A stretch of 64,000 nucleotides of DNA from Candidatus Kuenenbacteria bacterium HGW-Kuenenbacteria-1 (GTDB lineage: Bacteria > Patescibacteriota > Patescibacteriia > UBA2591 > PGYQ01): positions 21,515-85,514 of the forward strand of contig PGYQ01000002.1 in assembly GCA_002839745.1 (NCBI GenBank), written 5' to 3'. The notes under the pieces were generated by a model. It was not told the DNA's origin and did not search any database. It was given only the letters and a program-made list of their open reading frames with translations. How positions within the stretch are numbered: the first letter of the stretch is position 1; each line of letters starts with the position of its first letter. The translations under genes and the position numbers were made by a program. Shown piece after piece: positions 7,395-51,373 of the stretch.

Positions 7395-9329
7395 ATGAAA
7401 AATATATTTGAACAACTTATAGATTTATTAAAAAAAGACGAGCGACTTGTTTCGCAAGACGGTATTCTTTTGAAAAATCAAACACAGGAATTGGCGCGCA
7501 AGAATGATCCGACGCTCTTAAAACTTTTGCTTTCCGATAAAACGATAAAACAACACTTCTTTTTTGAAATAGAAAAAACGCTGATTTTTGATAAAGAAAA
7601 ATTTATCCGTTTTGTTTCCAACAAACAATTTTTGCCGGATTCTTATACCGCTTTCAAAAACAAAATCGGTTTAACTGCTAACGATGAATATGTGAGTGAA
7701 AACAAAGAAGTGGTTTTGGCGTGGCCTTATAAAGATTGTGTTTTGGAAGGCGGAATGACTAAAGAAGACCAAAAGCGCGACGAGATTTTTTATAACGAAA
7801 CACTTGCGCCGGACGACATTAATCGCTTATTGGATGCCAAAGTTTTTACCAATTTCAAACGAATAGATAAAAAAGGCGAACACAAACTGAACGGCTTCAA
7901 TCGCGATGAAAAAGGCACAATTAAAGACAATTTAATTATCAAAGGCAATAACCTGCTCGCCCTTGCCTCGCTCAAAAAAGAATTCGCCGGAAAAGTGAAA
8001 CTTATTTACATTGATCCGCCATACAATACCGGCAATGATGGATTTAAATACAATGATTCATTCAATCATTCCTCGTGGCTTGTTTTTATAAAGAATAGAT
8101 TAGAGATAGCAAAAATATTGTTATCTAATGATGGTGTTATTTTTATACATTGCGATAATAACGAGCAGGCATACCTAAAAGTAATGATGGATGAAATTTT
8201 TGATAGGGATAATTTTATTGACATAATAACGGTTGTTAATAATCCAAGGGGACGAGATTATGGTGGCATTGCTAAAATGCACGAATTTATAAATGTATAT
8301 GCAAAATCATCTGATTATAAATTATATAGATTAGAAGAGCCAAATAAAGAATTTCCTTTTGCTGATAATATTAGCGGTTTTGAAATAAGGGAATTAAGAA
8401 ATAGAAATGTTAAATTTAACGATACAAATCGTCCAAACCTAGTTTATCCATTTTTTGTTAATTCTAAAAAAGAAGATAAAAATGGGTTTTTTGATATTGG
8501 TTTAGAACAAAAGACTGGGTGGGTAAAGGTTATGCCGGCTAAATCACAAGGTATTCAAACTGTTTGGCGGTGGGGCAGAGAAAAGTCAGCAAAAGAATTA
8601 AATATAAATATTTGTGGTAAACAAATGCAAAATGGTGGTTGGCAAATTGTTGAAAAATATCGCGAAAAAACAACAATGGCGAGGTCTGTTTGGTGGGATA
8701 AAAATGTAAATTCTGAAAGAGGAACGCTACATCTCAAAGAAATGTTTGGGAGTAAGTTATTTGATTATCCAAAACCAGAGGAAACACTACACAGAATTAT
8801 TGAGATGGCGACAAGACAGAATGATCTTGTTTTAGATTTTTTTGCTGGCTCGGGTACGACTTTAGCGGTGGCACACAAAACCGGACGACAATATATTGGT
8901 ATTGAGCAAATGGATTATATCCACGATTTGCCGGAAACGCGGCTCAAGAAAGTGATTGCCGGCGAGCAGGGTGGAATTTCCGAAGCCATCGGCTGGAAAG
9001 GCGGCGGGGATTTTGGCTATATGGAACTTGCTAAATGGAACGAAAAATGGATAGAAAAAATTGAAAAAGCAAAAACAGGCGAAGAGCTTTCCAAACTTTG
9101 GGGTGAGATGAAAGAAACCGCCTTTTTGAGCTACAAGGTAGATCCGAAAACGATTGACGCAAACGCCAAAGATTTTGCGGATTTGAGTGCCGCTGATCAA
9201 AAGAAGTTTTTAATTGAGTGCTTAGATAAAAACCAGCTCTATATCAATTTAAGCGAAATTGAGGATAAAGAGTACGAAGTGAGCAAGGAAGATAAAGCAC
9301 TCAATAAAAACTTCTATAACGGCAAATAA
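7395..9329 (+). CDS. mod: Type III restriction-modification DNA methyltransferase (Mod), beta-class N6-adenine methylase
   Basis: DPPY motif IV (IYIDPPYNTGNDG) precedes a central variable region, followed by motif I (DFFAGSGTT). Sits directly upstream of res. Confidence 0.8.
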   Translation: MKNIFEQLIDLLKKDERLVSQDGILLKNQTQELARKNDPTLLKLLLSDKTIKQHFFFEIEKTLIFDKEKFIRFVSNKQFLPDSYTAFKNKIGLTANDEYVSENKEVVLAWPYKDCVLEGGMTKEDQKRDEIFYNETLAPDDINRLLDAKVFTNFKRIDKKGEHKLNGFNRDEKGTIKDNLIIKGNNLLALASLKKEFAGKVKLIYIDPPYNTGNDGFKYNDSFNHSSWLVFIKNRLEIAKILLSNDGVIFIHCDNNEQAYLKVMMDEIFDRDNFIDIITVVNNPRGRDYGGIAKMHEFINVYAKSSDYKLYRLEEPNKEFPFADNISGFEIRELRNRNVKFNDTNRPNLVYPFFVNSKKEDKNGFFDIGLEQKTGWVKVMPAKSQGIQTVWRWGREKSAKELNINICGKQMQNGGWQIVEKYREKTTMARSVWWDKNVNSERGTLHLKEMFGSKLFDYPKPEETLHRIIEMATRQNDLVLDFFAGSGTTLAVAHKTGRQYIGIEQMDYIHDLPETRLKKVIAGEQGGISEAIGWKGGGDFGYMELAKWNEKWIEKIEKAKTGEELSKLWGEMKETAFLSYKVDPKTIDANAKDFADLSAADQKKFLIECLDKNQLYINLSEIEDKEYEVSKEDKALNKNFYNGK

Positions 9330-9331
9330 TT

Positions 9332-12001: not shown

Positions 12002-12125
12002 TTTTTTGTGTAATACATTATCGCTATACTATAAACCTAAAAAATAATATTTTATTTTACTAATTTTATATTTTCATTATAGATTTGTTGCCGAATGCCA
12101 TATTTATTCAATATTTTATAAAACT

Positions 12126-15100
12126 ATGTATCAATTTTACAGTTTAGTTGATGATAAACAAGAAAATTGTTATTACATTGACACAAATTCATCTTTGAAT
12201 AAAAAAGAAATTAAAATTTTGACCAAAATTTTGGCTAATGGTTTTATTGAAAAAAATATTAGTTTAGTTTCAAAATTAAATGATGAAAAAGTAATTGAAA
12301 TTGGACCTAGACTTAATTTTGCTACTGCTTTTTCTAGTAATGCTGTATCAGTTTGTCATAATTGCGGATTAAAAATAATTATACGAATTGAAAAAGCAAA
12401 AAGATATGATTTAAATAAAAATGATGATAGAAATAATTTCATTAAAACAAATCATGATAAAATGACTGAAATTGTTTATGAAAAAAAGTTAGAAAATTTT
12501 AAAACAAATTTAATTCCAAAACCAGTCTATGAAGTAAAAATTTTAGAACAAGGAATTGATGCTTTGAAAAAAATAAATAAAGAAATGGGCTTGGGAATGG
12601 ATGATTGGGACGAACAATTTTATTTCAATCTTTTTATTAATGACATAAAAAGAAATCCTACCAATGTTGAATGTTTTCAATTAGGTCAAGCTAATAGTGA
12701 ACATTCTAGACATTGGTTTTTTAAAGGCAGAATGATAATAGATGGAAAAGAAAAAGAAGAAACTTTGTTAGAAATAGTTCAATCAACTTTAAAAGCTAAT
12801 ATTGCAAATAGTTTAATTGCTTTTACTGATAATTCAAGCGCTATAAAAGGTTATGCTATTGAAACAATTATTCCAAAAACACCTGGAAAAGTTTCGTATT
12901 TTATAAAAACAAAGAAAAAATATAATTTTATTTTTACAGCTGAAACACATAATTTTCCAACAGGAATTGCTCCTTTTTCTGGTGCTGAAACAGGATCAGG
13001 AGGACGAATTAGAGATGTTCAAGCAACAGGAAAAGGATCTTTAGTTGTGGCAGGAACTGCTGGTTATGCAATTGGTAATCTTAATATTCCTAAATATAAT
13101 TTAGTTAATGAAAATAAAAATTTTAAATATCCAGATAATTTAGCAAGTGCTTTAAAAATTCAAATAGATGCTTCAAATGGAGTTTCTGATTATGGAAATA
13201 AATTTGGTGAACCATTAATTCAAGGATTTAATCGTTCTTTTGGTCAAATACTTCCTGATAAAACACGACAAGAATGGATAAAACCAATATTATTTTCTGG
13301 CGGTGTTGGACAAATTGATAATATTCATATTAAAAAATATAAAGTAGAAATTAAAATGTGTATAATTCAAATCGGCGGTCCAGCTTATCGTATTGGAATG
13401 GGTGGTGGAGCAGCTTCAAGTATGATTCAAGGTGAAAATAAAACAGAATTAGATTTTAATGCTGTTCAACGTGGTGATGCTGAAATTGAACAAAAAATAA
13501 ATCGAGTTATTCGCGCTTGTGTAGAAATGGGAAATAATAATCCAATTATTAGTATTCATGATCAAGGAGCTGGAGGACCTTGTAATGTTTTAACAGAATT
13601 AGTAGAACCAATCGGTGGCAAAATAGAAATTAGAAAAATTAATTTAGGTGATAAAACAATGTCAGTTTTAGAAATTTGGGGATGTGAATATCAAGAAAGA
13701 CAAGCTTTATTAATTAAACCAAATAAATTAAAATTATTTTTAAATATTTGTAAAAGAGAACATAGTGATTGTGAAATATTAGGAACAATTACTGGCGATG
13801 GAAAAATTATTGTTTATGATAATGAAAATAAATCAACACCAGTTAATTTAGAACTTTCTAAAATTCTTGGCAAAATGCCTAAAAAAATATTTAAAGACAC
13901 AAGTTTAAAAATGAAATTAACTCCATTAATATTTCCAAATAATTTATCTTTTGAAAAAGCTTTAGAAAATGTTTTACATTTGCCATCAGTTTGTTCAAAA
14001 AGATTTTTAACAACAAAAGTAGATCGCAGTGTAACAGGTTTAATTGCTCGTCAACAATGTGTTGGTCCTTTGCAACTTCCATTATCTGATGTTGCAGTAA
14101 TCGCACAAAGTCATTTTAATAAAACTGGCGCAGCTATTTCAATTGGGGAACAACCAATAAAAATTTTAGTTAACCCAGAAGCAGGCGCGCGGATGTCAGT
14201 TGGCGAAGCATTAACAAATATTGTTTGGGCAAAAATAAGTAAATTAGAAAATATTAAATGTTCTGGAAATTGGATGTGGCCAGCAAAATTACCAGGTGAA
14301 GCTTCAAGAATTTATCAATCAGCTTCAGCAATGCGTGATTTAATGATTAAATTAGGAATTGCAATTGATGGAGGAAAAGATAGTTTATCAATGGCAACAA
14401 AAATGAAAAATGAAATTATTAAATCACCAGAAGAATTAGTTATTTCAGCATATTCTTCAATGCCAGATATTAATAAAGTAATTACGCCAGATATTAAATA
14501 TGCTGGAGAAAGTGAGCTTTGGATTATTGATTTAGGAAAATCAAAATGTCGTTTAGGAGGATCAGCTTTAGCTCAAACTGTTAAACAAATTGGAAATCAA
14601 TCGCCAGATGTTGATGATGCAGAAATATTAAAACAATCTTTTTTAGCAATACAAGAATTAATTGAAAAAGATTTAATTATTTCAGGACACGATCGTTCAG
14701 ACGGCGGTTTAATAACAACATTACTTGAAATGGCTTTTGCTGGAAATTGTGGTTTAAAAATTAAAACAGAAAATAATGCTGATAAATTTGCTTATTATTT
14801 TAATGAAGAATTAGGTTATATAATTGAAGTAAAAAATAATCTAAAAAAAGAATTTTTAAAAATTATAAATAAATATAACTTAAATAATTTAACAGAATCT
14901 ATTGCAAAAACTATTATTGAAAAAGAAATTATTATTAACCATAATAATGAATTAATTTTAAAAAATTCAATGCAAAAATTAAGAGATATTTGGGAAGAAA
15001 CAAGTCATCAAATTAATTTACTTCAAACTGATCCAAAATGCGCTCAAGAAGAAAAAAATAATATTTTTAATCAACAAGTATTAGAATATAAAATTTCTTT

Positions 15101-34095: not shown

Positions 34096-34271
34096 TATTA
34101 TGACAAAACAAAATAAACACGAAAACACGAAAACATAAGAAATTTTAAATTATAAATTTTGGAAGATTGTTTAAATGCAGAAATCGAACCTTGGGAAATC
34201 CCGTAGGCCGATTCTATGTAATCGCCCACAGGGCGAAAACGTGGTTTCGCCCCTACGAAACGCAAATTGTT

Positions 34272-35149
34272 ATGCAATACAATTCCGAAATCCATCATCG
34301 TCGATCAATTAGATTAAAAGAATATGATTATTCGCAAAATGGCGTATATTTCATCACAATTTGTACGCAAAATCATGAATGTTTGTTTGGAAAAATTGAA
34401 AATGAAAAAATGATTTTAAATGAATACGGCAAAATTGTAAAAAAAGATTGGTTGGAAATCCCAAATCATTTTCCAAATATAATATTAGACAAATTTATTG
34501 TAATGCCCAACCATATTCACGGAATAATAATTATTGACGCATCCGTAGGGGCGTACCCTTGCGGTCGCCCTGTAATTAGGGCAGGGGCAAGCCCCACGGT
34601 TGGGCTGTTCTAAAATAATGACATCATAAAGTTTACATTATTTGTACATTTTTCAATTGTTTCTTGTATTTTGTTTAAATTATTTTTTCTGAAAATATTA
34701 ATTACTAAATTTCTGATTAAAGAATAATTTGCAGAAGCATTTCCTCACGGTTAGGGAAATTAATTAAGCCCCCTTGATAAAGGGGGTTGGGGGATTTCAT
34801 AAGAAAGAAACCCTCTAAATCCCCCTTATCAGGGGACAAAGAGAGAAGCAAACCTCTTAAAAGCCCCCTTGATAAAGGGGGTTGGGGGATTTCAGAAATT
34901 AAGAAACCCTCTAAATCTCCCTTATCAGGGAGACTTTATGGAAGAAGGATTTTCAAAATTATAAATCATTAGTTGCAAATAGGTGTTTAAATATTTATAA
35001 ATCAAAAAATAAATATATGGGGAAATTATAGCAACGGAATTATTTTGAACATATTATTCGTGATGAAAAATCATTAAATAAAATTCACGAATATATTTTT
35101 AACAATTTTTTGAAATGGGAATTTGACAGAAATAATCCAAAAAATTTAT
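34272..35149 (+). pseudogene. REP-associated tyrosine transposase (RAYT, IS200/Y1 family) split by a MITE insertion. N part is about 34272-34592, C part about 35028-35149.
   Basis: N part has HHRRSIRLKEYDYSQNGVYFITICT and the HuH motif (HIHGII). C part reads QRNYFEHIIRDEKSLNKIHEYIFNN, the catalytic-Tyr motif. The two parts are separated by a repeat element that has a near-identical second copy at 58479-58781. Confidence 0.65.
34593..35027. mobile_element. MITE-like element copy A (one clean terminal inverted repeat (TIR), internal 86-bp tandem duplication, degenerate distal end) inserted in the RAYT gene
   Basis: TIR CCACGGTTGGGCTGTTCTA lies at 34593-34611. The body is near-identical to the reverse complement of 58479-58781. 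Internal GC hairpin modules are CCCCCTTGATAAAGGGGG and CCCCTTATCAGGGG. The hairpin unit is duplicated at about 34768-34853 and 34863-34945. Confidence 0.65.
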
Positions 35150-35302: not shown

Positions 35303-35617
35303 ATGACAAAACAAAAACTTCAAAAAAATTTAAAACAAATTATCAAAGATCTCGAACCATATAAATCAGAAAAAATAATTCTTTATGGTTCTTGTGCTAA
35401 AGGTGATTTTAAAAAAAATAGTGATATTGATTTATTTATTATCAAAAAAACAAAAAAAAATTTTTTCGACAGACTTGACGATGTAAATAAATTAATTAAT
35501 CATAAAACGCCAATAGATATTCTTGTTTTTACTCCTAAAGAAATAAAAAAACGCCTTGCTTTAGAAGATTTCTTTTTTAAAGAAATAATTCAAAAAGGAA
35601 AAATTATTTATGAATAA
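35303..35617 (+). CDS. minimal nucleotidyltransferase (MNT), antitoxin of an MNT/HEPN pair
   Basis: GSCAKGDFKKNSDIDLFII nucleotidyltransferase motif; 104 aa; overlaps the downstream HEPN gene by 8 nt. Confidence 0.75.
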   Translation: MTKQKLQKNLKQIIKDLEPYKSEKIILYGSCAKGDFKKNSDIDLFIIKKTKKNFFDRLDDVNKLINHKTPIDILVFTPKEIKKRLALEDFFFKEIIQKGKIIYE

Positions 35618-36005
35618 TAAAAATTTAATTAAGGCAAAAGAATGGTTTAAAATTGCTGATAATGATTTTGGGTTTGCTAAATCCAGCTTTGAAGATAAGG
35701 ATGAATATTATGCTCAAATATGTTTTTTGTTTCATCAAGCTATTGAGAAATATTTAAAAGGCTACTTAATTGCTAAAGGAAAAATTCCTCAAAAAACTCA
35801 TGATTTAGCTTTTTTAATAGAAGAATGTAAAAAAATTAATTTAAAATTTAAAGAATTTGAATTAGAATGTAAAGAAATAAATAAATATTATATACCAAGT
35901 CGTTACCCAGTTCATTGGATAGAAGTAAAAAAAGAAAACACCAAAAAAGCTTTTGAAGCAGCAGAAAATATTACAAAATTCATCAAAGAAAACATTTTAT
36001 ATTAA
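35610..36005 (+). CDS. HEPN-domain protein (toxin of the MNT/HEPN pair)
   Basis: 131 aa, predicted helical, translationally coupled to the MNT gene. Confidence 0.65.
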   Translation: MNNKNLIKAKEWFKIADNDFGFAKSSFEDKDEYYAQICFLFHQAIEKYLKGYLIAKGKIPQKTHDLAFLIEECKKINLKFKEFELECKEINKYYIPSRYPVHWIEVKKENTKKAFEAAENITKFIKENILY

Positions 36006-37798: not shown

Positions 37799-38860
37799 TT
37801 AATTAATAATCTGCTGTTTTTTATCCTCTTCTTTTTTTAATTCAAAAAAATCTTTTATCAAAATAAATAAAGTGGTAGCAATAGGAATGGCTAATAACAT
37901 TCCAATAGGACCATATAATTTCCCGCCAATTAAAACAACAATAATAACCAATACTGGGTTTAATCCCACAATTTTACCCATTATTTTAGGAACCAGGATA
38001 TGATTTTCTAATTGTTGAATAATAAAATACAAAGCAATTACCAATAAAGCTGTAACAGGAGATTGAGTAAAAGCTAAAAATATAGCAGGAATAGCTCCTA
38101 TGATAGGACCGAAATATGGGATACATTCACTAATTCCAGCAATTAAAGCTAATAATAAGGCATATTTAACACCCAAAATTAAAAGCCCAATATAGCTAAA
38201 AAGACCTATTGATAAACATAAAATTAATTGCCCGCGCGACCAAAGACTTATTTTATTTTGCACTTGAGAAAAAAGCTGCAAAGTATAAGATTGAAATTTG
38301 TCAGGCACAATGGATTGAATAATTTTTTTCATTGCTTTTACTTCAAGCAATAAATAAAAAATCATAATTAAAACAAAAATAAAAGTAACTAAACCTCCAA
38401 AAATATCTATAACTCTGAAAAATATATTTTGTCCTATTTGAACTATGTTTTTATTTAAATCCTGAGATAAAAATTCTTTAGAAGTTGAAGTAAAGTTATC
38501 TATATTAGAATATTGTTGAACAATAGCAAACATTTCTGCTACTTTCCCTTTCCATTGAGGAAAATTTTCTACTGCTTGATTAATTTGATCAAATATTACT
38601 GGAACAATTAAAACAATAATAAAAAATATAACACAAAATATTACAAGATAAATAACAGAAATTGATATAATTCGCGGAATTTTTTTTCTTTGAAAATAAT
38701 TAACTAACGGATTAAGAGCTGCTGCCAAAATAATAGAAACAACGACAACAAGTATTACATCGCGAATTAAATACAAAAATCCAAAAATTAAAAAAATTCC
38801 AATTACCTTAATAATTGTCAAAGAGGAAATATTAATTGTAAGCTGATTTTTTTCTTGCAT
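37799..38860 (-). CDS. AI-2E family transporter (PerM/TqsA-like)
   Basis: 353 aa with about 8 TM helices and an AI-2E-like profile. Confidence 0.65.
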   Translation of the reverse strand: MQEKNQLTINISSLTIIKVIGIFLIFGFLYLIRDVILVVVVSIILAAALNPLVNYFQRKKIPRIISISVIYLVIFCVIFFIIVLIVPVIFDQINQAVENFPQWKGKVAEMFAIVQQYSNIDNFTSTSKEFLSQDLNKNIVQIGQNIFFRVIDIFGGLVTFIFVLIMIFYLLLEVKAMKKIIQSIVPDKFQSYTLQLFSQVQNKISLWSRGQLILCLSIGLFSYIGLLILGVKYALLLALIAGISECIPYFGPIIGAIPAIFLAFTQSPVTALLVIALYFIIQQLENHILVPKIMGKIVGLNPVLVIIVVLIGGKLYGPIGMLLAIPIATTLFILIKDFFELKKEEDKKQQIIN

Positions 38861-38875
38861 AAATATAAATAAAAA

Positions 38876-41206
38876 TTATAAATTAGATGAATAAGATAAA
38901 GATTTTATATAATTTTCCATAAATTCCCAATCAGGTTTTTCATTTTTTGATGGGAGTTTTATAATCCTTTCTTTTAATCTTGTTTGACTAGCTTTTATTC
39001 CATAATTATATCGATATTGTTCCATATTTAAAATTGTTGTTAAAAATAAACCAATATATTTATTCAACTCAAATTTTGGTATTAATTTTTCTACATGATC
39101 ACTTGCTGAAAATCTTTTTTCTTGAAATGAACAATATCCTATAACAGCACTATCAATAGTTAAAATGTTCCCTTCTTCTGTAAAAAAATCATAAAAACCT
39201 CTCACTCCATTATTAGTTGCTTGTGTAGTAATAAAAGGATATTCTCCTTTTCCATATTCTTCTAAATCTAAAATGGAAGTTGTTTTACTTCCAGTAATTT
39301 CAAACAAATCTATTAAATTAAAATTTTTCCAATTTTTTATATTTAATTTAATATTTTCATTTTTTGAAATACTAGATTTTAAAATATTTTTATTAATAAA
39401 AATATTATTTGCTATTTCAAAGGCTAAATAATTACGAACATCTTTCTCAAAATCCTCTTTTGAAATATTTGAATAATCCGTCTCCATATAAGCTTCGGCA
39501 CACCATTCGTCGTTTGCTTTTACGACTTTATTTACACTAAGCCCTGCAATATTTTCGTGATTTTGAAAATTTACTATCCATTCTTTTTTTATTTTATTTT
39601 TAAAATTTTCAAATAAATCAATTCTTCCTTTATTTTTTCTTTTTACAAAACCATCGTTTTTATAATATCCAAAATAAGTTTTCTTTTCTGCAGGATGAGG
39701 TCTCTTTGCTGTAAAAACCATAATACAAGAAACAACATTTACTTTTGAATTAAAAAATAATTCATCTGGCATTGAAAAAACTGCTTCCAGAGTATGCTTC
39801 TCTAAAACTTTTTCTTTCCATTCATAAACTTTTCCTGTTTGAGCTAATGCACTTTGCATCGGAACAATTGCAACACATTTTCCTCCTTGTTCTAAACAAT
39901 CCAAATTATTTAAAATAAATTCAAATTCATCTATATCATTTTTTTTATCTGATTTATAAGGAGGATTGAGCAAGCCGACTGTTGGTTTAGAATTTTTAAC
40001 TTGTTTAATAATTTTTTCATCAAAACAACTTCCGTGAAAAATATTTGTTTTTCCATCTTGATGTATAAACATATTTGAACAAGCAAGAGCAAAAATATCT
40101 GCTTGATATTCAACACCAATTAATTGTTTTGTTTTTATTTCTTTTTCTTTTTCTTTATCACCTTTTGCATCTTTAATCATTAAATTCATAGATGACACAA
40201 GAAAACCACCAGTTCCAGTGCAATTATCATAAACAATACTATCTTTATTTACTTCAACAATTTCTGTCATAAATTCTGTGATATGCGGTGGAGTCAAAAC
40301 TATTCCTAAACCTTTATCACTATTTGCATATCGTAAAAATTCTACATAAAGTTGCCCAAGCACATCAAGATATTTATGATTTTTTATAAAATCTTTTATA
40401 TTTTCATTTATGTCTGTAATTATTTCAAGCAAAACATTGTGCTTATTTGAAAGACTTGTATCTGTTTTTATAAAAGAAAATTTTTGATCTAAAATAGCAA
40501 GTTTTTTTTCTCCAATTTTTCCGTTTTCAAATTCATTTCTAACAGTGGTTAATAAAAATTCTGATAATTGTTTTGGGTTAGTATAAGTTTTATATCCATC
40601 TTCAAAAGATTTATTTTCCAGAGCAATTAAAACACAAGAAAGTAATAATGCTCGATCGCTTTCTTTAACTTTATGCAAATGTAAATTATCATTAAGTTTT
40701 TTTGAAAAATCTAAAAGATTATTAAAATCTTGCCGAAACTTTTCAGGACTTTTTATATAACCTTCTAAATAATCTTTCGCTAATAATAATTTATTTGAAA
40801 AAATTTCAACAGAATTTTTTTCTCCTTTCATTTGTAAAAAATGTGAGACTTTTAATTCTTTAATATCAGCACCACTAACCGCAATTGAAATCACATCATA
40901 ATCTTTTGCTAAATAAGATGAATATAACAAAACTCCATCAACAGCATAATCTTTTGCTTCTTTTTTTGTTTCACTTTGATGTTTTAAAATATCAAATTTA
41001 CATTCAACAACAATTAAAAGATCTGAATTATTTTTGTACTGAATAATAAATTCCGGAAAACCTTTTCCGTTTCCACTTTTAGAGGCAGTATTTAATAATT
41101 TTTGAATTTTCAAATTTTTAGAAGATTGTTCTTCCAAAATAATATCATCCGAATATTTTTTAAAATGGTCTCTAACAATATTTTCTGTATCTCTTTCGTT
41201 TTTCAT
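38876..41206 (-). CDS. single-chain Type IIG-like restriction-modification enzyme: N-terminal PD-(D/E)xK nuclease, gamma-class N6-adenine methyltransferase, C-terminal HsdS-like target recognition domain
   Basis: DLLIVVECKFD nuclease-like motif near the N-terminus. NPPY methylase motif (LLNPPYKSD). The C-terminal about 190 aa resembles a Type I S-subunit target recognition domain (TRD). Confidence 0.6.
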   Translation of the reverse strand: MKNERDTENIVRDHFKKYSDDIILEEQSSKNLKIQKLLNTASKSGNGKGFPEFIIQYKNNSDLLIVVECKFDILKHQSETKKEAKDYAVDGVLLYSSYLAKDYDVISIAVSGADIKELKVSHFLQMKGEKNSVEIFSNKLLLAKDYLEGYIKSPEKFRQDFNNLLDFSKKLNDNLHLHKVKESDRALLLSCVLIALENKSFEDGYKTYTNPKQLSEFLLTTVRNEFENGKIGEKKLAILDQKFSFIKTDTSLSNKHNVLLEIITDINENIKDFIKNHKYLDVLGQLYVEFLRYANSDKGLGIVLTPPHITEFMTEIVEVNKDSIVYDNCTGTGGFLVSSMNLMIKDAKGDKEKEKEIKTKQLIGVEYQADIFALACSNMFIHQDGKTNIFHGSCFDEKIIKQVKNSKPTVGLLNPPYKSDKKNDIDEFEFILNNLDCLEQGGKCVAIVPMQSALAQTGKVYEWKEKVLEKHTLEAVFSMPDELFFNSKVNVVSCIMVFTAKRPHPAEKKTYFGYYKNDGFVKRKNKGRIDLFENFKNKIKKEWIVNFQNHENIAGLSVNKVVKANDEWCAEAYMETDYSNISKEDFEKDVRNYLAFEIANNIFINKNILKSSISKNENIKLNIKNWKNFNLIDLFEITGSKTTSILDLEEYGKGEYPFITTQATNNGVRGFYDFFTEEGNILTIDSAVIGYCSFQEKRFSASDHVEKLIPKFELNKYIGLFLTTILNMEQYRYNYGIKASQTRLKERIIKLPSKNEKPDWEFMENYIKSLSYSSNL

Positions 41207-41240
41207 ATGATTGTTTTTTATAGTTAAAAACTTCTATATT

Positions 41241-41431
41241 GATTATTTTACATCAAATTTTTAATAAAGGCAAAAAGAGTTTTGTGTTTTCAAAGGGGCT
41301 TATTATGGCTAAATTTAATTTATTGGTTTGAAAAATTTCTTTTGCCAAATAAAATCCGTATCATCTGTTTCTAAAAGTAAATTTCCTTTTAAGTATTCTT
41401 TAATTTTATTTAATTCTACTTTTGACACTTT
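41241..41431. repeat. about 190-bp duplicate of the 3' end of the M16 peptidase gene (copy of 43919-44110)
   Basis: Near-identical apart from one 4-bp indel (TTAC). Confidence 0.8.
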
Positions 41432-41445
41432 AATGTTTATTGTGA

Positions 41446-42188
41446 CTAACGATATGTTATGGTGTATAATCCTAATATATATTCTATATGATCATCTATT
41501 AAATTAAAAAAAACAATTAATATATCTGTAGTTGTTGTTTTATATTCATCTCGATTATTTTTTAAACGCACTATATCGCTAAATCTAGTCACAACATCAT
41601 TAGGCATTCTATTTTTAATCTCATCCAAAATATCTTGACCTGTCACACAAGTTTTATAGAGAGCTTGAACAGTTAGCTTTGTAATAATAATTGCGAGATG
41701 TAAAACTCTTTCCAAAACATCAGCGTTTAAATTTTCTCTTGTCATTATTCTCATATATATATTGTAAAGATTTCCTACCTCTTTAAGGCTAAATTCCTTG
41801 ATTTGCGATTCTGAAAATTTTGGCAAGAGATTATTGTGATCGTCACATCCAAAAATTTGCTGATATCCCAAATTTACCTCTATAATTGACTGAATAATTT
41901 TGCCATCAATGGTTAATAAATTAGGATTTTCTGCATTCAAAAAATTTTTACTAATAACGACGCCACTAATCTTCAAGGCGTAATTATTTATAAGCTCATT
42001 AAAACAGCTGTTTATTTTATGTTTCTCGCCATAATTAATATTGTAAACAACAAGCACGAAGTCTATATCACTATCAATAGAAATATCTTTTCCGACACCA
42101 TAACTGCCAGCACCTATAGTATACGCAAAATTTTCACCTAATTTTTTTTAATGCGAGCAGATAGCTCCGCAAAATTTCCATCAAACAT
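41446..42188 (-). CDS. Pol-beta superfamily nucleotidyltransferase (KNTase/ANT(4')-like size and layout). Frame changes in a homopolymer run at 42142-42149.
   Basis: ATG at 42188 gives MFDGNFAELSARIKKN*. The other frame continues KKLGENFAYTIGAGSYGVGKDISIDSDIDFVLVV (GS..G...DxD NTase motif) into the listed ORF 41446-42057. Confidence 0.5.
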
Positions 42189-42195
42189 AATTTAT

Positions 42196-43545
42196 TTACT
42201 TAAAAATTTTGGCAATCATTTTTTTCTCATCTTCAAATGAACACAGTTTTATTGCTTCATTTGGAGAGACAAGAAAAGCATCGATAAAGCCTTCGGCTAT
42301 CAGCGCCTTAAGTTTAATTTTCTTACCTTCTATAAGATATGTGCTAACCGTTTTGTTGTGAGTTGCAAAACCATATTCGGGAGTAAAGGTGTAAGAATAT
42401 TCACCGATTTTTCCTTTTACAATTCCACTTTTAAGTCCTGCTTCCTCTTTAACTTCTCGCAAAGCAGCGTCGCTAGATTTTTCTCCATAATTAACATGAC
42501 CTTTGGGTAAAAAAATACGTCCATTAGTTTTTTTAATTAAAAGAATTTTTGCACCCTCTTTATTTTTAAAATAAACAACAGCACTAGCTGATAAATGGTT
42601 AATAACCCTCTTTTGTTCCACCGCAACAGCATGTTTAACTAACTCAACTATTTGCGAGGGAGTTTGAAATGTAATGAAGTAAGATGATACCTTTTGCAAA
42701 ATTTGGTCTGTACAGGCTCTCCTGCTCAAAGCCAATCGCTTACAATCCTTCTCTATATTAAAAATTTCCGTACTATCTGTTCTTTTGATCCAACTAGCAC
42801 GATCATATTTAGGATAAAGAAATTTTGCCATATGTGAAAAGGCCAAAATATCAAGATTTGCTCTTGCCTTATTTTCTGATAAACGAACTACTTTTGGTTC
42901 TGCCTTTAGGCTGAATCTGGGATAAACAATCATTGAAAGTTGTGCCTCTAAACTTGATTTTATACCAAAATCACCCAAAGAATAAAGTCCGCGACATTTA
43001 GGATTACTATTAATTAAAATCCCACGGTTGTTAAGATCTACTAAATATTCATCACGTATATGTATCGAAAGAGTCGAGAAATCAAGTATGGCATTACTGG
43101 CAACATCATATACACTAAACTCATCACTTACATACTCATTACTTTTTAAACCCAGTTCTATAGAGGCCGTTGTCTTGCCAACATTTGTTCCATCATCACC
43201 AAATAATATAGCTTTACTCTCACACCATATGGCCGTTGAGGCATGCAAAAGAAGTTGAGGTTTATCAACAGATAAGAAATCTGCAAATCTAAATATGATT
43301 TGCATTATCATAATAGGCAAAAGATGGTCGGAACAATTATCGAGTGCTGGTCCAGCCACCACAACAGATCGACTTTTTACATTAATTATTATGGACTTTT
43401 CTTTTGCCCTCTTAAAAATAATTACTCCATCACTTTTTTCAACTGGCACAATTTTAAAAGACTTCAATATATTATTAATGACTTTTGATTCTTTTTTAAT
43501 ATCAATCTTTAAAATCACCAAACCGATTTGTATATATTTAATCAT
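42196..43545 (-). CDS. two-domain protein: HprK-like P-loop kinase/phosphorylase domain plus C-terminal NUDIX hydrolase
   Basis: LLLHASTAIWCESKAILFGDDGTNVGKTTASIELG resembles the HprK C-domain P-loop (GDSGVGKSETALEL). Nudix box GHVNYGEKSSDAALREVKEEAGL. Confidence 0.55.
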   Translation of the reverse strand: MIKYIQIGLVILKIDIKKESKVINNILKSFKIVPVEKSDGVIIFKRAKEKSIIINVKSRSVVVAGPALDNCSDHLLPIMIMQIIFRFADFLSVDKPQLLLHASTAIWCESKAILFGDDGTNVGKTTASIELGLKSNEYVSDEFSVYDVASNAILDFSTLSIHIRDEYLVDLNNRGILINSNPKCRGLYSLGDFGIKSSLEAQLSMIVYPRFSLKAEPKVVRLSENKARANLDILAFSHMAKFLYPKYDRASWIKRTDSTEIFNIEKDCKRLALSRRACTDQILQKVSSYFITFQTPSQIVELVKHAVAVEQKRVINHLSASAVVYFKNKEGAKILLIKKTNGRIFLPKGHVNYGEKSSDAALREVKEEAGLKSGIVKGKIGEYSYTFTPEYGFATHNKTVSTYLIEGKKIKLKALIAEGFIDAFLVSPNEAIKLCSFEDEKKMIAKIFK

Positions 43546-43666
43546 ATAAATTGTAGAAGTTTTTAATGTTTTAAGGCTAAAAAAATTTTACAAATATATT
43601 TTCTTTTTATAAAATTATTCGAATAGTTGATATTAATTTTAAGTTATCAAAAAAAAGTTAGGGGGC

Positions 43667-43745
43667 GGTGCAGGTCGATGATTAGTCGACCTGCACCGTT
43701 AAAACAAGAGGGATTCGAACCTGCCAAGGTTTTCGCACAGACTTT
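43667..43745. other. perfect 12-bp-stem GC-rich hairpin followed by a degenerate tRNA T-arm-like fragment
   Basis: GGTGCAGGTCGA-tgattag-TCGACCTGCACC, then GAGGGATTCGAACCTGCC. Confidence 0.4.
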
Positions 43746-43860
43746 CAGACGAGTTATTAAAAATCGGTTTAATAATAAAATTTGCTATGTCGTGGCTAAC
43801 ATATATCTCTTCACACAAAGGAATAAGCGCGATTTCTATTTTTATTTTTTGCATATTATT

Positions 43861-43915
43861 TTAATAATTGTCAAAGAGGAAATATTAATTGTAAGCTGAT
43901 TTTTTTCTTGCATAA
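43861..43915. repeat. 55-bp duplicate of the 5' end (first 17 codons plus start) of the AI-2E transporter gene (copy of 38810-38864)
   Basis: Exact 55-bp identity; directly abuts the intact 3' end of the peptidase gene. Confidence 0.85.
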
Positions 43916-43929
43916 TATTTATTATTACA

Positions 43930-45102
43930 TCAAATTTTTAATAAAGGCAAAAAGAGTTTTGTGTTTTCAAAGGGGCTTATTATGGCTAAATTTAATTTAT
44001 TGGTTTGAAAAATTTCTTTTGCCTTACAAATAAAATCCGTATCATCTGTTTCTAAAAGTAAATTTCCTTTTAAGTATTCTTTAATTTTATTTAATTCTAC
44101 TTTTGACACTTTAATATTTTTTAATTTCTTAAATTCACGCAAAATTATTTTTATTGCTTGATTAATTTTATTAATATTTAATCCAGCACTCACAACCAAA
44201 GCTCCTGTTTCATTATAATAATCAATGGAAGAATAAATATAATAAGCCAATCCCCTTTTTTCTCTAATTTCCATAAAAAGCCTTGAACTCATTGTCCCAC
44301 CTAAAATAACGCTTAAAACTTGATAGACTGTCTTTTGTGGATTATTATATGAAAGATAATCTGATTTTAAACTTAAACATAAATGCGCTTGATCAGTTTC
44401 TTTTTTATATAATAAAATCTGCGGTTTTTTTTGTTGATCTTCTACTTTTTTAAATTTTTTTATAGATTTATTTTTAATTTTATTAAATATTTTCTCTACT
44501 TCTATAATTACTTGTTCATGTTTTATATCCCCTGCCACACTAATTACCATATTTGAAGGTTGATATAAATCCTTTATATAATTTATAAAATCTTCTCTTT
44601 TAATTTTTTCTATAATCTTTTTTTCTCCTAAAGGATCAAACCCTAAATTCTGTTCTTTCCACATTAATTGTTGAATCAAAGTGGAAATATAAGACTGAGG
44701 ATTATCTAAATACATATTAATTTCCTCAAGAATTACTCCTTTTTCTTTTTCAATTTCTTCTGATTTAATCAGAGAATTTAAAACTAAATCTGAAAGAAAT
44801 TCAATACCTAATTTGAAATGCTTTTTTGGCACTTTGGTCCAAAAACCCGTGTGATCAATAGAAGTAAAAGCGTTAATTTGTCCACCAACTTTTTCAATTG
44901 TTTCTGAAATTTGTTTTGCATTTGGCCTTTTTTTTGTTCCCTTAAAAAACATATGCTCTAAAAAATGTGAAATGCCATTATTATTTTTATTTTCATATCT
45001 TGATCCAGCGCCAATTAAAATAATAGAAGCGACAGATTTCATTTCTGGCATTTCACTAGTAATAATTCTCAAACCATTTTTTAAAATTGTTTTTTTAAAC
45101 AT
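43930..45102 (-). CDS. M16-family zinc metallopeptidase (insulinase-like)
   Basis: Inverted zinc motif HFLEHMFFKGT (HxxEH). Confidence 0.75.
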   Translation of the reverse strand: MFKKTILKNGLRIITSEMPEMKSVASIILIGAGSRYENKNNNGISHFLEHMFFKGTKKRPNAKQISETIEKVGGQINAFTSIDHTGFWTKVPKKHFKLGIEFLSDLVLNSLIKSEEIEKEKGVILEEINMYLDNPQSYISTLIQQLMWKEQNLGFDPLGEKKIIEKIKREDFINYIKDLYQPSNMVISVAGDIKHEQVIIEVEKIFNKIKNKSIKKFKKVEDQQKKPQILLYKKETDQAHLCLSLKSDYLSYNNPQKTVYQVLSVILGGTMSSRLFMEIREKRGLAYYIYSSIDYYNETGALVVSAGLNINKINQAIKIILREFKKLKNIKVSKVELNKIKEYLKGNLLLETDDTDFICKAKEIFQTNKLNLAIISPFENTKLFLPLLKI

Positions 45103-46155: not shown

Positions 46156-49100
46156 TTATTTTATTTTATATTCTTTTCTATCATAAAATTCTTCTTGTTT
46201 ACCTTCATGCCATTGTTGTATTGGTCTAATATAACCAGTAACTCGGGAATATACTTCACAATTTTTATTACATTGCGGACACTTAAAATGTTCTCCTGCA
46301 ATATAACCATGGTCAGGACAAACACTGAAAGTTGGAGTAATGGTAAAATATGGCAAATGATAATTTTCAGCAATTCGTTTAACTAATTGCTTAGTTGCTT
46401 CAACTGATGGCATTTTTTCTCCAATAAATCCATGAAAAACCGTTCCTCCTGAATATTTACATTGTAATTCATCTTGAAAATCTAAAGCTTCAAAAATATC
46501 ATCTGTATAATTTACTGGCAAATGGCTAGAATTGGTATAATAAAAAGCTTTTTCTCCTGCAGTAATTATTTTTGGATATTTTTTTTTGTCAATTTTAGCC
46601 AAACGATAAGAAGTTCCTTCAGCAGGGACTGCTTCTAAATTGTAAATATTTCCTGTTTCATTTTGAATTTCTTTCAATTTTTCTCGCATAAAATCTAAAA
46701 TTTCTAAAGCAAATTCTCTCCCCTCTTTACTGGCTATGTCTTTATTTTTGCCTAAAAAATTTAAACAAGCCTCATTAATTCCCAAAGGTCCAATGGTAGA
46801 AAAATGATGATCTAAATTTCCTAAATATCTTTTAGTATAAGGAAATAATCCATTATTTAAATTATGAGTAACTACTTTTCTTTTAATTTCTAAAGATTCT
46901 TTTGCTAAATCCATTTGTTTGGCTAATCGATCAAAAAAATCTTTTTTATCTTTTGCTAAATAACCAATGCGAGGCATATTAATAGTCACAACTCCCACCG
47001 AACCAGTTGATTCGCCAGAACCAAAAAGTCCACCTGTCTTTGCTCTTAATTGATTAAGATTCATTTGTAATCTACAACACATTGATCGAACATCGGTTGG
47101 TTTTAATTCACTATTTATAAAATTTTGGAAATATGGTATTCCATATTTGGCTGTCATTTCAAAAAGTAAATTTGTATTTGAAGTATCCCAATTAAAATCT
47201 TTAGTAATATTATATGTAGGAATTGGAAATGTAAAAACCCTCCCTTTATTATCCCCTTCTGTGGCTACTTCTATAAAAGCCCTATTTATCATATCCATTT
47301 CTTTTTGATAATCCTCATAAGTAGTTTCTTGTAATTTGCCACCAATAATTACTGGATCGTTTTTTAAATCTTCCGGCACAGTCCAATCAAAGGTTAAATT
47401 AGTAAATGGCGTATTCCCTGTTATAAAAGTTTTTCCATTTCTTCTTGCAATAAAAGTGCCATTTAAAGTAGTTGGACACCAAACTTTTCCTTTGTATTTT
47501 TTCTTTGAAATTTGAGTTATTGAAGTTATATTATTTCTAATAATATTTATAACGTAAACGCCATTTTCTCTTTGTTTAATGGTTGTTCCATAATTAGACA
47601 AAACGCATAATTCTTGTAAATCATTTTTATTTTTTTCATCTTTTGTAAATATTCTTATCCTACCTTTAAACTCTCGATGACCATCACCTTTAATATAAGT
47701 ATGAATAAAAAGTTGGATTTGATCAGCGGAAAGTGTTTTAATTAAAGAAGGTATTTCTTTTTTATTTATTATTTTTCGAATTTTTTTTGAAGATTCTTGA
47801 TTTAATCTAAATCTTAAAATTATTCCACTATTTAAAAATCCACCATTTTTTTTCATTTCATCCCATTTAAAATTCAATTTTTTTAAACAGGTTCTTATTT
47901 CATTACAATTAGCTATATTTTTTTCTGATTGAAATATATAAACTCGATCTCTATCACCATCTGAAAAACTTCCTTCAGAAACAAACCAAGCAATTATTTT
48001 TAATAAATTTTCGTCTATTTCTTTTTTTGAAACAGTTATAGATGAATTGGGTATTAAAATTGGCGTTTTAAATTTTAAAGCTTTTTCAATTTCTAATAAT
48101 TCAAACTCGCCATTATTAAATATTTTTCTGACAATTTTGTGACCAGGTGTTATTAATTGATCTTGTGTTCTATTTTTTAAATTAAATAAATAACCATTAT
48201 AATCATAAGAACAAACTCTTTCTGGTTTTAAATATTCAATTATTTTTTTTTCTAAATTAAAAGTTGCTATCTTATCTTCTTTTTTAATCTCTAAATATTT
48301 TTTCCATCCATTATCTGTTAATGCTTCTGTGTCTTCACTAACACATTGAGTCCCCCATCTAGAAGGTGCGGCAATATTAAACATAAATTTTTGAATATTT
48401 TGTTTTACTTCTTTATAAGTTAAATGATCCGCTCGCACAAATGGAGCTAAATAAGTATCAAAAGAACTAAAGGCTTGAGCCCCAGCCCATTCATTTTGTA
48501 AAATTCCCCAAAAATTTACCATTTGTCCCAAAACTGTTTCTAAATGTTTGGGTGGCGCGCATTCAATTCGATTTTCAACACCTCCCAATCCTTGCAAAAG
48601 TAATTGTCGTAAACTCCAACCAGCACAATAAGCATTTAAACCCATTGATAAATCATGAAGATGTATATCTCCCTCTTTATGAGCTTGAGCAATTTTTGCT
48701 GGATAAACATTTTCTAAAAGATAATTAGCAATAACGGACCCAGAAATATGAAGCATCAATCCTCCAAACGAATAACCAATATTGGCATTTTCTTTTACTC
48801 TCCAATCTTCTTGTTTTAAATAACCATCCATAATTTTTTCAATATCCATCATTACTCCGCCCATTTCACGCACTTTTTCTTGCTGTTTTCTATATAAAAT
48901 ATAAGCCTTTGCCACTTCAACCAAACCAGCTTTAATTAAAACCTTTTCAACAATGTCTTGGATTTCTTCAACAGTGGGAATATTTTTTGAATCAAATTGA
49001 TATTCAAGAATGGTTAATACCTTATCAGATAATTTTTTTGACTTTTTTCCATCTTTTCCTTCAATAGCAACAATGGCCTTATAAATGGCTTGAGTAATTT

Positions 49101-49176
49101 TTTCTTGATCAAATTCAACCATTCTTCCATTCCGCTTCCGAATTTTTTGTATTTTAAATTTTTTTATTTGTTTCAT
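46156..49176 (-). CDS. nrdD: anaerobic ribonucleoside-triphosphate reductase (class III, NrdD) interrupted by an intein
   Basis: N-terminal ATP-cone. C-terminal Zn ribbon (CPDHG...CPQCNKNC) and glycyl-radical motif (SRVTGYIRP). Extein junctions are RWGTQ|C and N|TPFTN. Confidence 0.8.
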   Translation of the reverse strand: MKQIKKFKIQKIRKRNGRMVEFDQEKITQAIYKAIVAIEGKDGKKSKKLSDKVLTILEYQFDSKNIPTVEEIQDIVEKVLIKAGLVEVAKAYILYRKQQEKVREMGGVMMDIEKIMDGYLKQEDWRVKENANIGYSFGGLMLHISGSVIANYLLENVYPAKIAQAHKEGDIHLHDLSMGLNAYCAGWSLRQLLLQGLGGVENRIECAPPKHLETVLGQMVNFWGILQNEWAGAQAFSSFDTYLAPFVRADHLTYKEVKQNIQKFMFNIAAPSRWGTQCVSEDTEALTDNGWKKYLEIKKEDKIATFNLEKKIIEYLKPERVCSYDYNGYLFNLKNRTQDQLITPGHKIVRKIFNNGEFELLEIEKALKFKTPILIPNSSITVSKKEIDENLLKIIAWFVSEGSFSDGDRDRVYIFQSEKNIANCNEIRTCLKKLNFKWDEMKKNGGFLNSGIILRFRLNQESSKKIRKIINKKEIPSLIKTLSADQIQLFIHTYIKGDGHREFKGRIRIFTKDEKNKNDLQELCVLSNYGTTIKQRENGVYVINIIRNNITSITQISKKKYKGKVWCPTTLNGTFIARRNGKTFITGNTPFTNLTFDWTVPEDLKNDPVIIGGKLQETTYEDYQKEMDMINRAFIEVATEGDNKGRVFTFPIPTYNITKDFNWDTSNTNLLFEMTAKYGIPYFQNFINSELKPTDVRSMCCRLQMNLNQLRAKTGGLFGSGESTGSVGVVTINMPRIGYLAKDKKDFFDRLAKQMDLAKESLEIKRKVVTHNLNNGLFPYTKRYLGNLDHHFSTIGPLGINEACLNFLGKNKDIASKEGREFALEILDFMREKLKEIQNETGNIYNLEAVPAEGTSYRLAKIDKKKYPKIITAGEKAFYYTNSSHLPVNYTDDIFEALDFQDELQCKYSGGTVFHGFIGEKMPSVEATKQLVKRIAENYHLPYFTITPTFSVCPDHGYIAGEHFKCPQCNKNCEVYSRVTGYIRPIQQWHEGKQEEFYDRKEYKIK
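47413..48345 (-). mobile_element. intein (311 aa) with a LAGLIDADG-type homing endonuclease domain inside nrdD
   Basis: Starts with Cys (CVSEDTEALTDNG) and ends ...ITGN, followed by extein Thr. Internal KIIAWFVSEGSFSDGD is a LAGLIDADG-like motif. Confidence 0.65.

Positions 49177-49556: not shown

Positions 49557-51373
<1,817 letters not shown>

Follow-up and report, generated by a model that had tools for sequence, protein, structure and literature searches.

A kinase::Nudix gene and a frameshifted nucleotidyltransferase gene in Candidatus Kuenenbacteria as the possible remnant of a Patescibacteria gene cluster

A 64,000-nucleotide stretch of contig PGYQ01000002.1, called here the window, comes from Candidatus Kuenenbacteria bacterium HGW-Kuenenbacteria-1, a metagenome-assembled genome (MAG) of the Patescibacteria or Candidate Phyla Radiation (CPR). 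At 41446-43545 it carries two adjacent genes, one for a 449-aa protein (100% identical to PKL72580.1 of that genome) in which an HprK-like P-loop kinase domain is fused to a Nudix domain, and one for a Pol-beta-type nucleotidyltransferase (NTase). A first-pass annotation had called these three domains correctly, had placed the two genes in the same orientation, which we confirm as the minus strand for all of the genes relevant here, and had proposed a self-contained two-gene module. The pair is instead what an internal deletion has left of a five-gene cassette, and we give an even chance to the fuller reading, in which the locus represents the worn-down 3' end of a cassette that was gained by horizontal transfer and is itself the compact form of a metabolic gene cluster of the Patescibacteria. 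That conserved cluster is real and unannotated and apparently undescribed; the combination of genes had not been recognised as a named defence system, and our literature search found no named family or paper for it or for 'HprK-related kinase'.

The scar of the deletion lies upstream of the intact kinase::Nudix gene (42196-43545, as given in the open reading frame (ORF) list), where a 51-codon chimeric ORF at 43854->43699 (43699-43854, minus strand) translates as MQKIKIEIALIPLCEEIYVSHDIANFIIKP joined directly to IFNNSSESLCENLGRFESLLF and a stop. Comparison of its translation with loci L014, L001 and L009, together with blastn and tblastn matches, identifies it as an in-frame fusion of the opening ~30 codons of a gene for an AroB-like cyclase with the closing ~21 of one for a 385-aa P-loop protein. 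The intact cassette of close relatives encodes the AroB-like protein (361-370 aa), a small Nudix protein (137 aa), the 385-aa protein, the kinase::Nudix protein (449-454 aa) and the NTase (224-245 aa), with a fragmented methyltransferase gene also present before kinase::Nudix in L014. When positions 41200-44200 are aligned by blastn with the relatives' loci, nucleotide identity of 80-87% extends from 41459, in the 3' end of the NTase gene, to 43763; in L009-L013 this match is unbroken and stops within the 3' end of the 385-aa gene, and a separate 97-nt match at 43768-43864 corresponds to the start of the AroB-like gene in L014. These alignments show that the internal deletion took out the 137-aa Nudix gene together with the greater part of the cyclase gene and of the 385-aa gene, and no second copy of any of these, nor of genes for a nucleoside diphosphate kinase (NDK), a family 2 glycosyltransferase (GT2) or a methyltransferase, is present within the 64-kb window. 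A tRNA-like string in the scar, GGTTCGAATCC (~43715-43725), was considered as a tRNA or att remnant and rejected: ARAGORN and Rfam searches were empty, and the string belongs to the coding 3' end (...GRFESLLF and stop) of the deleted 385-aa gene.

The second lesion is in the NTase gene (41446-42188), which had been described as encoding a protein of roughly 245 aa. Its Pol-beta motif, GSYGVGKDISIDSDIDF, is indeed present in the DNA; an intact ORF of that length is lacking. From the ATG at 42188 the frame runs for only 16 codons before a TAG (42138-42140), with the remainder of the NTase in the -1 frame, and the longest intact ORF, 203 aa from a GTG at 42057, excludes the GS...DxD motif. At the frameshift site the window reads ATT-A8-TTAGGT, the run of eight adenines occupying 42142-42149 (minus strand), as compared with ATT-A9-TTAGTT in L014, where the gene is in frame, and AAAGAAAGA or AAAGAAAAA in other homologues, and comparison of the tract with homologous loci thus identifies the lesion as a 1-nt homopolymer contraction (A9 to A8) that puts the start codon out of frame with the GS...DxD region and leaves the frame of the catalytic motif interrupted. 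Five full-length close homologues (237-245 aa) start MFDGNF.EL...[IF]KE[KR]L and remain in frame through the motif. An alternative genetic code for the stops in the 5' region was also entertained and is ruled out by the A-tract, shorter by 1 nt than in eight homologous loci. The frameshift and the gene architecture are shared by an independent Joint Genome Institute (JGI) assembly, L020, 100% identical across the region, and the gene calls are truncated throughout, at 203 aa in Logan and JGI and at 164 and 176 aa in GenBank and ENA; at the other end of the gene the last ~5 codons have been replaced at the junction with host DNA.

Frameshift and deletion together mean that the locus cannot work as the two-gene system first described. 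Relaxed selection on the window NTase was considered and rejected, dN/dS for the repaired gene against intact relatives (0.19-0.21) being level with that of comparisons among intact copies (0.17-0.22), from which it follows that the frameshift is either recent or tolerated; for the kinase::Nudix gene the corresponding values are 0.16-0.23. The A8 tract lies within A_AAA_AAU, so that transcriptional or -1 ribosomal slippage could partly restore the frame, and judging by the sequence such slippage could yield a protein of exactly the length of the homologues.

The history of the cassette is suggested by three features taken together: the low synonymous divergence between the window copy and those of its relatives (dS 0.43-0.49, at about 87% nucleotide identity), one of which comes from a Magasanikbacteria-labelled MAG; the abrupt loss of similarity to the relatives at the cassette edges; and a G+C content of 0.31-0.335 across 41.5-43.5 kb against ~0.25 on both sides. 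These suggest that the cassette may have been acquired by horizontal transfer, and the earlier view of the region as an insertion into a core locus holds up, G+C being raised and the region bracketed by duplicated host sequence. In L008, from a Magasanikbacteria-labelled MAG, the kinase::Nudix gene is split into ORFs of 149 aa and 211 aa (1747-2809) and the NTase gene is intact, a pattern of decay opposite to that of the window which indicates that the cassette erodes independently in different hosts; with the DDE transposase gene that adjoins the cassette in L009, it also indicates that erosion and mobility are recurrent in this clade. We note that in L021 a standalone HprK-like gene and its cluster are immediately preceded by a large serine recombinase gene (Resolvase, Recombinase and Zn_ribbon_recom domains; 2-1063), which hints that a distant form of the cluster may be mobile as well. 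A further copy of the cassette is found on contig CAYHHR010000022.1 (L016), labelled 'uncultured Gammaproteobacteria bacterium', possibly through a binning error, all other named sources being Patescibacteria.

The wider cluster was delineated by a neighbourhood survey. A genome-contig scan gave 4 loci, and, one alignment (A7) being too diverse, a narrower one (labelled A8, not to be confused with the tract) gave 45 metagenome loci; tblastn was then applied to 68 loci, which collapse to 33 lineages at ≤80% identity, 26 of them with at least 3 kb of flank, and partners were counted within 6.5 kb of the HprK-like gene. A Nudix domain is a partner in all 26 lineages and an NTase in 23, followed by NDK (21/26), the AroB-like cyclase (20/26), a nucleoside monophosphate (NMP) kinase-like protein (19/26), GT2 (15/26) and a methyltransferase (15/26). 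The co-occurrence of NTase and HprK-Nudix genes that the first-pass annotation had put forward for such a survey is thus conserved, and the two are functionally linked. Across 38-89% protein identity, every Nudix-fused kinase gene has an NTase gene directly downstream or one GT2 gene further on, and in this Nudix-fused clade, followed down to 38-47% identity, an AroB-like gene and NDK are adjacent, except that L018 has no AroB-like gene. Standalone HprK-like genes adjoin the same gene set, and the more distant lineages have a standalone kinase, cyclase, NTase, GT2, a Nudix domain fused to NTase or GT2, an NDK::NMP-kinase fusion and a methyltransferase. In many lineages the spacing is near-constant (cyclase at +1 kb, NTase at +1.9, GT2 at +2.7, Nudix at +3.4, NMP-kinase/NDK at +4 to +4.5 and methyltransferase at +5.2). 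The Nudix fusion partner varies, being the kinase in the window clade, the NTase in L021 and L023 (hhalign probability 99.3-99.5 to the NTase profile) and GT2 in L015, where the NTase has a gene to itself; between the L023 fusion and the window protein the Nudix domains share 36% identity. This co-occurrence over deep divergence, with gene order rearranged and three different Nudix fusion partners, is strong evidence, drawn from gene order and sequence, that kinase, NTase and Nudix and usually also cyclase, NDK/NMP-kinase, GT2 and methyltransferase constitute a single functional unit, and the composition of that unit indicates small-molecule chemistry.

These partners bear directly on the proposal that the two genes form an anti-phage or nucleotide-signalling system, in which the NTase would make a signal on infection and the kinase::Nudix protein would act as effector or regulator. 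The cassette is mobile and is found near a Type IIG restriction-modification (R-M) gene in the window, a DDE transposase in L009, Fic in L008 and a serine recombinase in L021; Nudix and NTase domains are both known from defence systems, and HalB, the Hailong NTase, is among the lower-ranked structural matches to the NTase (E~1e-2). A search of PADLOC-DB v2 nonetheless matched no CD-NTase and no named system, returning only weak similarity of the NTase N-terminus to PDC-S09 (E=1.2e-4 over 85 residues) and a match to PDC-S07 (E=0.022 over 30 residues). The genes that constantly accompany the pair encode a cyclase, NDK, an NMP kinase, GT2 and a methyltransferase rather than effectors or sensors, and the neighbourhoods of the 26 lineages display no defence-island pattern and no effector-like partner, as judged without a formal enrichment statistic. 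Where wider flanks are annotated, several loci sit amid ribosomal protein genes and release factor 1 (L003/L004), greA (L015) or heat-shock genes (hrcA-grpE...hsp20-dnaK in L018), an adjacent R-M gene is peculiar to the window's lineage, and the window copy is itself frameshifted and truncated. We therefore consider a defence or signal-synthesis role, as originally suggested, to be quite improbable.

The kinase::Nudix protein is as first annotated, an intact 449-aa ORF with an HprK-like P-loop and a C-terminal Nudix domain. The kinase-like domain (aa 1-312; 42610-43545) includes the motif LLLHAS...ILFGDDGTNVGKTTASIEL...SDEF, in which H101, D117, K124, T125, D141 and E142 are invariant across the family; K124 and T125 fall in the Walker-A-like GDDGTNVGKT and D141-E142 form the acidic pair downstream. 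An AF2 model built from a 49-sequence alignment (pLDDT, the model's own confidence measure, 94.5) has the PEPCK-like (HprK) catalytic fold. When the family profile was compared with PDB sequences the top match was HPr kinase 1ko7 (E=0.0016), and alignment to 1ko7/1jb1 places H101, G116-D-D-G-T-N-V-G-K124-T125 and D141-E142 onto LHG, GDSGIGKS and ADD, such that the P-loop follows a conserved His and the catalytic acidic pair stands ~17 residues downstream. Curated families give a different picture: the isolated domain matches nothing in Pfam even at E≤5, the window protein matches neither PF07475 nor TIGR00679 (HPr kinase proper; matched by 1 of 54 distant relatives), and on TIGR04352 (HprK-related kinase A; cutoff 200 bits) it scores 14.5 bits and homologue P0010 25.2 bits. 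By sequence and predicted fold, then, the domain is best classed as a remote member of the HprK superfamily that fails every curated HprK family cutoff. An exhaustive profile search of 1.84 billion representatives yields 104 relatives, nearly all standalone and ~310-325 aa long, with the full-length Nudix fusion of the window type in only two clusters; among 54 standalone relatives, 13 match TIGR04352 (best 4.6e-36), 4 HprK_rel_B and 1 Hpr_kinase_C.

Such a kinase might instead act on a protein or peptide, phosphorylating Ser, with the NTase building on the phosphate and the Nudix domain trimming polyphosphate or nucleotide adducts in a lasso-like modification. The substrate of every characterised HprK relative known to us is a Ser in HPr or in a lasso precursor, and some distant relatives of the kinase match HprK_rel_A/B, one of them carrying PqqD. 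The kinase/NTase pairing of lasso peptide clusters is a precedent (PMC8498205). The annotated Patescibacteria clusters have, however, no PqqD, lasso cyclase, protease or conserved small precursor ORF, although small ORFs were not searched for systematically, and the cyclase and GT2 partners suit small-molecule chemistry better; protein modification thus appears to us unlikely.

The Nudix domain (aa 313-449 plus stop; 42196-42609) matches Pfam NUDIX (PF00293) at residues 321-444 with 47.6 bits against a cutoff of 21.1, has the alpha/beta/alpha Nudix fold, and contains the canonical box GX5EX7REUXEEXGU with its catalytic glutamates as G349-HVNYG-E355-KSSDAAL-R363-E364-V-K-E367-E368-A-G370-L, the residues of which are invariant across 12 homologues. 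Its nearest relatives are Ap4A, Ap6A and ApnA hydrolases, and this resemblance, with NDK and NMP-kinase as near-constant partners, would suit a housekeeping role in alarmone or dinucleotide-polyphosphate metabolism, in which a nucleotide stress signal, ApnA-like or other, is made by the NTase and broken down by the Nudix domain, the kinase serves as a metabolite-sensing regulator, and NDK and NMP-kinase supply nucleotides. HprK/P itself is a metabolite-controlled regulatory kinase/phosphorylase, and in L018 an NDK-kinase::Nudix-NTase trio without an AroB-like gene (8115-14991) lies between grpE and hsp20/dnaK, the sole context hinting at a role in stress. That context is nevertheless limited to one lineage, the scheme leaves the AroB-like cyclase (20 of the 26), GT2 (15), methyltransferase (15) and the Nudix::GT2 fusion unexplained, and two-domain NTases of the aminoglycoside nucleotidyltransferase (ANT) type are known as small-molecule O-adenylyltransferases, so that we regard a nucleotide stress signal as doubtful.

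For the NTase itself, the repaired motif, G28-S29-x11-D41-I-D43-F, fits the pattern hG[GS]-x9-13-Dh[DE]h, with G28, S40, D41 and D43 invariant in a seven-member alignment that includes homologues of 27-29% identity. The family is small: 5.8 billion proteins yield eight clusters at 90% identity, including one for the truncated form of the window. It is also poorly covered by profiles: the repaired protein is unmatched in Pfam even at E≤5, and on PF01909 (cutoff 21 bits) the window sequence is unmatched, P0018 scores 14.1 and the L018 homologue 22.9. A model of homologue P0013 (pLDDT 83.5) consists of a Pol-beta NTase domain and a helical HEPN-like domain, and its best PDB matches are AadA, AAD(9) and ANT(3'')(9), with E of 1.5e-5 to 1e-4, TM scores of ~0.6 and 11-14% identity; HalB and MNT/HEPN proteins rank well behind (E 1e-2 to 1e-1). 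Taken at face value these matches would make of the pair an ordinary ANT and kinase that inactivate an aminocyclitol or aminoglycoside antibiotic, a role we consider highly improbable given the low identity and TM scores, the lack of any match to ANT families in Pfam or NCBIfam, a kinase that is not of the aminoglycoside phosphotransferase (APH) type, and the position of the gene within a conserved multi-enzyme cluster that is vertically widespread in its hosts.

The AroB-like proteins score 237-253 bits on TIGR01357 (aroB; cutoff 305), have as second match TIGR04425, an AroB-related putative cyclising sugar-phosphate phospholyase, and by sequence are nearest to 3-dehydroquinate synthase (DHQS) and then to 2-deoxy-scyllo-inosose synthase. 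The 325-aa 'NDK' of the clusters consists of NDK and a cytidylate-kinase/CoaE-like P-loop domain, and the 385-aa cassette protein is a double P-loop, NMP-kinase-like protein whose C-terminal half shares homology with the part of these 325-aa fusions outside NDK; it has only weak dTMP-kinase/AAA_18 P-loop matches in Pfam/NCBIfam and no meaningful match among PDB sequences.

From fold and neighbourhood, the best model for this set of functions would be a pathway of kinase, NTase and Nudix steps for the activation of a cyclitol or sugar phosphate. The AroB-like cyclase would make a carbocyclic or modified sugar phosphate, the HprK-fold kinase would phosphorylate a hydroxyl group, and the ANT-like NTase would join NMP to the hydroxyl or phosphate, giving an NMP- or nucleoside diphosphate (NDP)-activated group that GT2 might hand to an acceptor for decoration by the methyltransferase. 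The ApnA-hydrolase-like Nudix domain could cleave the pyrophosphate bond of an intermediate or by-product, for processing or proofreading, and NMP-kinase and NDK would recycle released NMP to NTP. In the window such a pathway could not run, and at most the kinase::Nudix protein would persist, with whatever NTase is made by slippage. A bolder reading, which we consider less likely than not, is that the seven-function cluster, so far known solely from Patescibacteria-named sources, is an undescribed pathway whose product, a cyclitol or pseudosugar in nucleotide-activated form or some other phospho-nucleotidylated small molecule, serves the cell surface or host interaction, using an HprK-fold small-molecule kinase and a biosynthetic ANT-fold NTase, and that the cassette form of the window clade moves horizontally between CPR lineages.

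Several points weigh against the interpretation offered here. The cyclitol/NDP-X chemistry is drawn from fold and neighbourhood; the characterised HprK-family kinases of which we are aware all transfer phosphate to Ser in proteins or peptides and not to small molecules; and ANT-type enzymes O-adenylylate hydroxyls and do not form NDP-sugars. The AroB-like gene is missing from 6 of the 26 lineages, L018 included, and its product may be a genuine AroB that has diverged. Because the survey started from HprK-like genes and took its exemplars from the same clusters, it is not reciprocal. As to erosion of the window locus, the unraised dN/dS (0.19-0.21) of the NTase, whose frameshift would be recent or tolerated, leaves loss of function unproven.

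For the window locus the outcome is deflationary, a recently broken fragment in which one gene is intact, another is frameshifted and a scar marks the deletion. For CPR biology the compact cluster (~6-7 kb) is a lead, as it represents a tightly conserved, unannotated set of enzymes in organisms noted for minimal biosynthetic capacity, with a kinase domain that has no Pfam family and an NTase that Pfam recognises marginally. If the cluster does make an activated cyclitol or sugar, the chemistry of the HprK family would no longer be confined to phosphorylating protein Ser, the AroB homologues found in these bacteria would gain a role within the cluster, and a molecule of surface or host interaction in episymbiotic bacteria would be indicated.

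Upstream of the locus lies an intact M16 peptidase gene (45102->43930, 43930-45102, minus strand; 390 aa), the 3' end of which constitutes copy A of a repeat (43925-44122, minus strand; families D1 and D2, 97-98% identity), and next to it a 61-nt duplicate (43855-43915, minus strand) of the 5' end of the AI-2E permease gene, whose partner is at 38802-38862 (family D4, 97% identity). Copy B (~195 nt; 41248-41441, minus strand; families D1 and D2), an orphan duplicate of the M16 3' end in which a 93-aa ORF is annotated in L020, abuts the NTase stop codon and sits upstream of the R-M gene, and the permease gene itself is intact at 38860->37799 (37799-38860, minus strand). The copy-A junction is one at which the M16 and permease genes were formerly directly adjacent, and an allele bearing the R-M gene between M16 and permease, on the copy-B side, is joined to it through the cassette; the bracketing repeats would fit a Campbell-type or strain-recombination event. 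Between the stop of the remnant ORF and the kinase::Nudix gene a 13-bp perfect hairpin, CGGTGCAGGTCGA-ctaatca-TCGACCTGCACCG, followed by a T-run (43666-43698, minus strand; read by eye from the sequence), is probably the terminator of the upstream cassette genes, and by its position would place kinase::Nudix and NTase in a separate transcription unit. A consensus terminator scan did not call it because the T-run begins more than 2 nt past the stem. The gap between the two genes, given earlier as 9 nt, measures 7 nt.

L020 differs from the window, to which it is otherwise 100% identical, by ~102-104 extra nt in both M16 3' repeat copies (L020 2933-3034 and 5713-5816; window sites 44023-44027 and 41346-41350), such that its M16 peptidase is 424 aa rather than 390 aa. 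The deletion endpoints of the two window copies differ slightly, and the difference between the assemblies is either a partial repeat collapse in that of the window or a population variant.

Two of the neighbours listed in the first-pass annotation are confirmed. The R-M gene (41206->38876, 38876-41206, minus strand) is a Type IIG enzyme by PADLOC (1.3e-162), and the toxin-antitoxin pair corresponds to overlapping MNT (PF01909, 2.8e-12) and HEPN (PF05168, 3.2e-28) genes at 35303-36005 (plus strand), a typical type II/VII module from which the kinase/NTase locus is separated by a type IV secretion system (T4SS) pilin-like gene and the permease gene. The REP-associated tyrosine transposase (RAYT) is a putative call, the 148-aa ORF at 34167-34613 (plus strand) having an HUH-like 'HIHGII' motif and no Pfam match at E≤0.001. 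Elsewhere in the window, the anaerobic ribonucleotide reductase NrdD (46156-49176, minus strand; 1006 aa) has its NRDD domain split by an insert of ~330 aa that starts with Cys (...WGTQ, then CVSEDTEAL...), ends at ...FITGN before T and weakly matches LAGLIDADG_3 (E=4e-4), and so looks like an intein with a homing endonuclease. The 16S rRNA match at 49558-51373 (plus strand; full length, 1352.9 bits) spans 1816 nt on a model of 1533 positions, the ~280 extra nt indicating an insertion or intervening sequence.

In the biosynthesis of the C7-cyclitols acarbose and validamycin, the cyclase AcbC, kinases AcbM/AcbU, phosphatase AcbJ and cyclitol NTase AcbR act ahead of glycosyltransferases (PMC9200736), and the roles correspond to those of the cluster: DHQS-family cyclase, kinase, phosphate-removing hydrolase, NTase and glycosyltransferase, with or without a methyltransferase. 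The folds differ, however, the C7-cyclitol enzymes being a sugar kinase, a glucose-1-phosphate adenylyltransferase-like NTase and an HAD protein, and those of the cluster HprK-like, MNT/ANT-like and Nudix; the hosts are actinomycetes in one case and Patescibacteria in the other, so that the relationship is one of analogy, not membership. In phosphoglycosylated lasso peptides an HPr-kinase homologue and then a cluster NTase act in sequence on one hydroxyl, and the kinases can polyphosphorylate, after which the NTase adds hexoses to the phosphate (PMC8498205). The pairing of such a kinase with a Pol-beta-type NTase is common to the lasso clusters and the cluster described here, and HprK/P, the HprK-related kinases A/B (TIGR04352/TIGR04355) and the lasso kinases share with the window kinase the PEPCK-like P-loop fold and the spacing His...G-D-x-G-x-x-G-K-[ST]...D-[DE]. 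The window kinase is distinct in having neither the HprK N-terminal domain, nor the PqqD or RiPP (ribosomally synthesised and post-translationally modified peptide) machinery, nor a phosphotransferase system (PTS) context, no HPr/PTS genes being seen in any locus, and in its own ~70-residue N-terminal beta domain and C-terminal Nudix fusion.

For the NTase the closest parallels are AadA, AAD(9), ANT(3'')(9) and the KNTase-type MNT + HEPN-like NTases, which have the same two domains, a Pol-beta G-S...D-x-D domain and a helical HEPN-like domain; against AadA-type enzymes, identity is 11-14%, no profile matches, and the gene belongs to a conserved cluster and not to a resistance cassette. MNT-HEPN pairs and Hailong HalB likewise share the Pol-beta core and helical HEPN-like domain, but the cluster NTase has no HEPN RxxxxH toxin partner, no HalA-like effector, and metabolic neighbours. 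The window Nudix domain appears nearest to the asymmetric ApnA Nudix hydrolases Aquifex aq_158, Thermus thermophilus Ndx1 and Mycobacterium tuberculosis Rv2985, from which the Nudix domains of the cluster differ in moving among kinase, NTase and GT2 fusions within one conserved set of genes.

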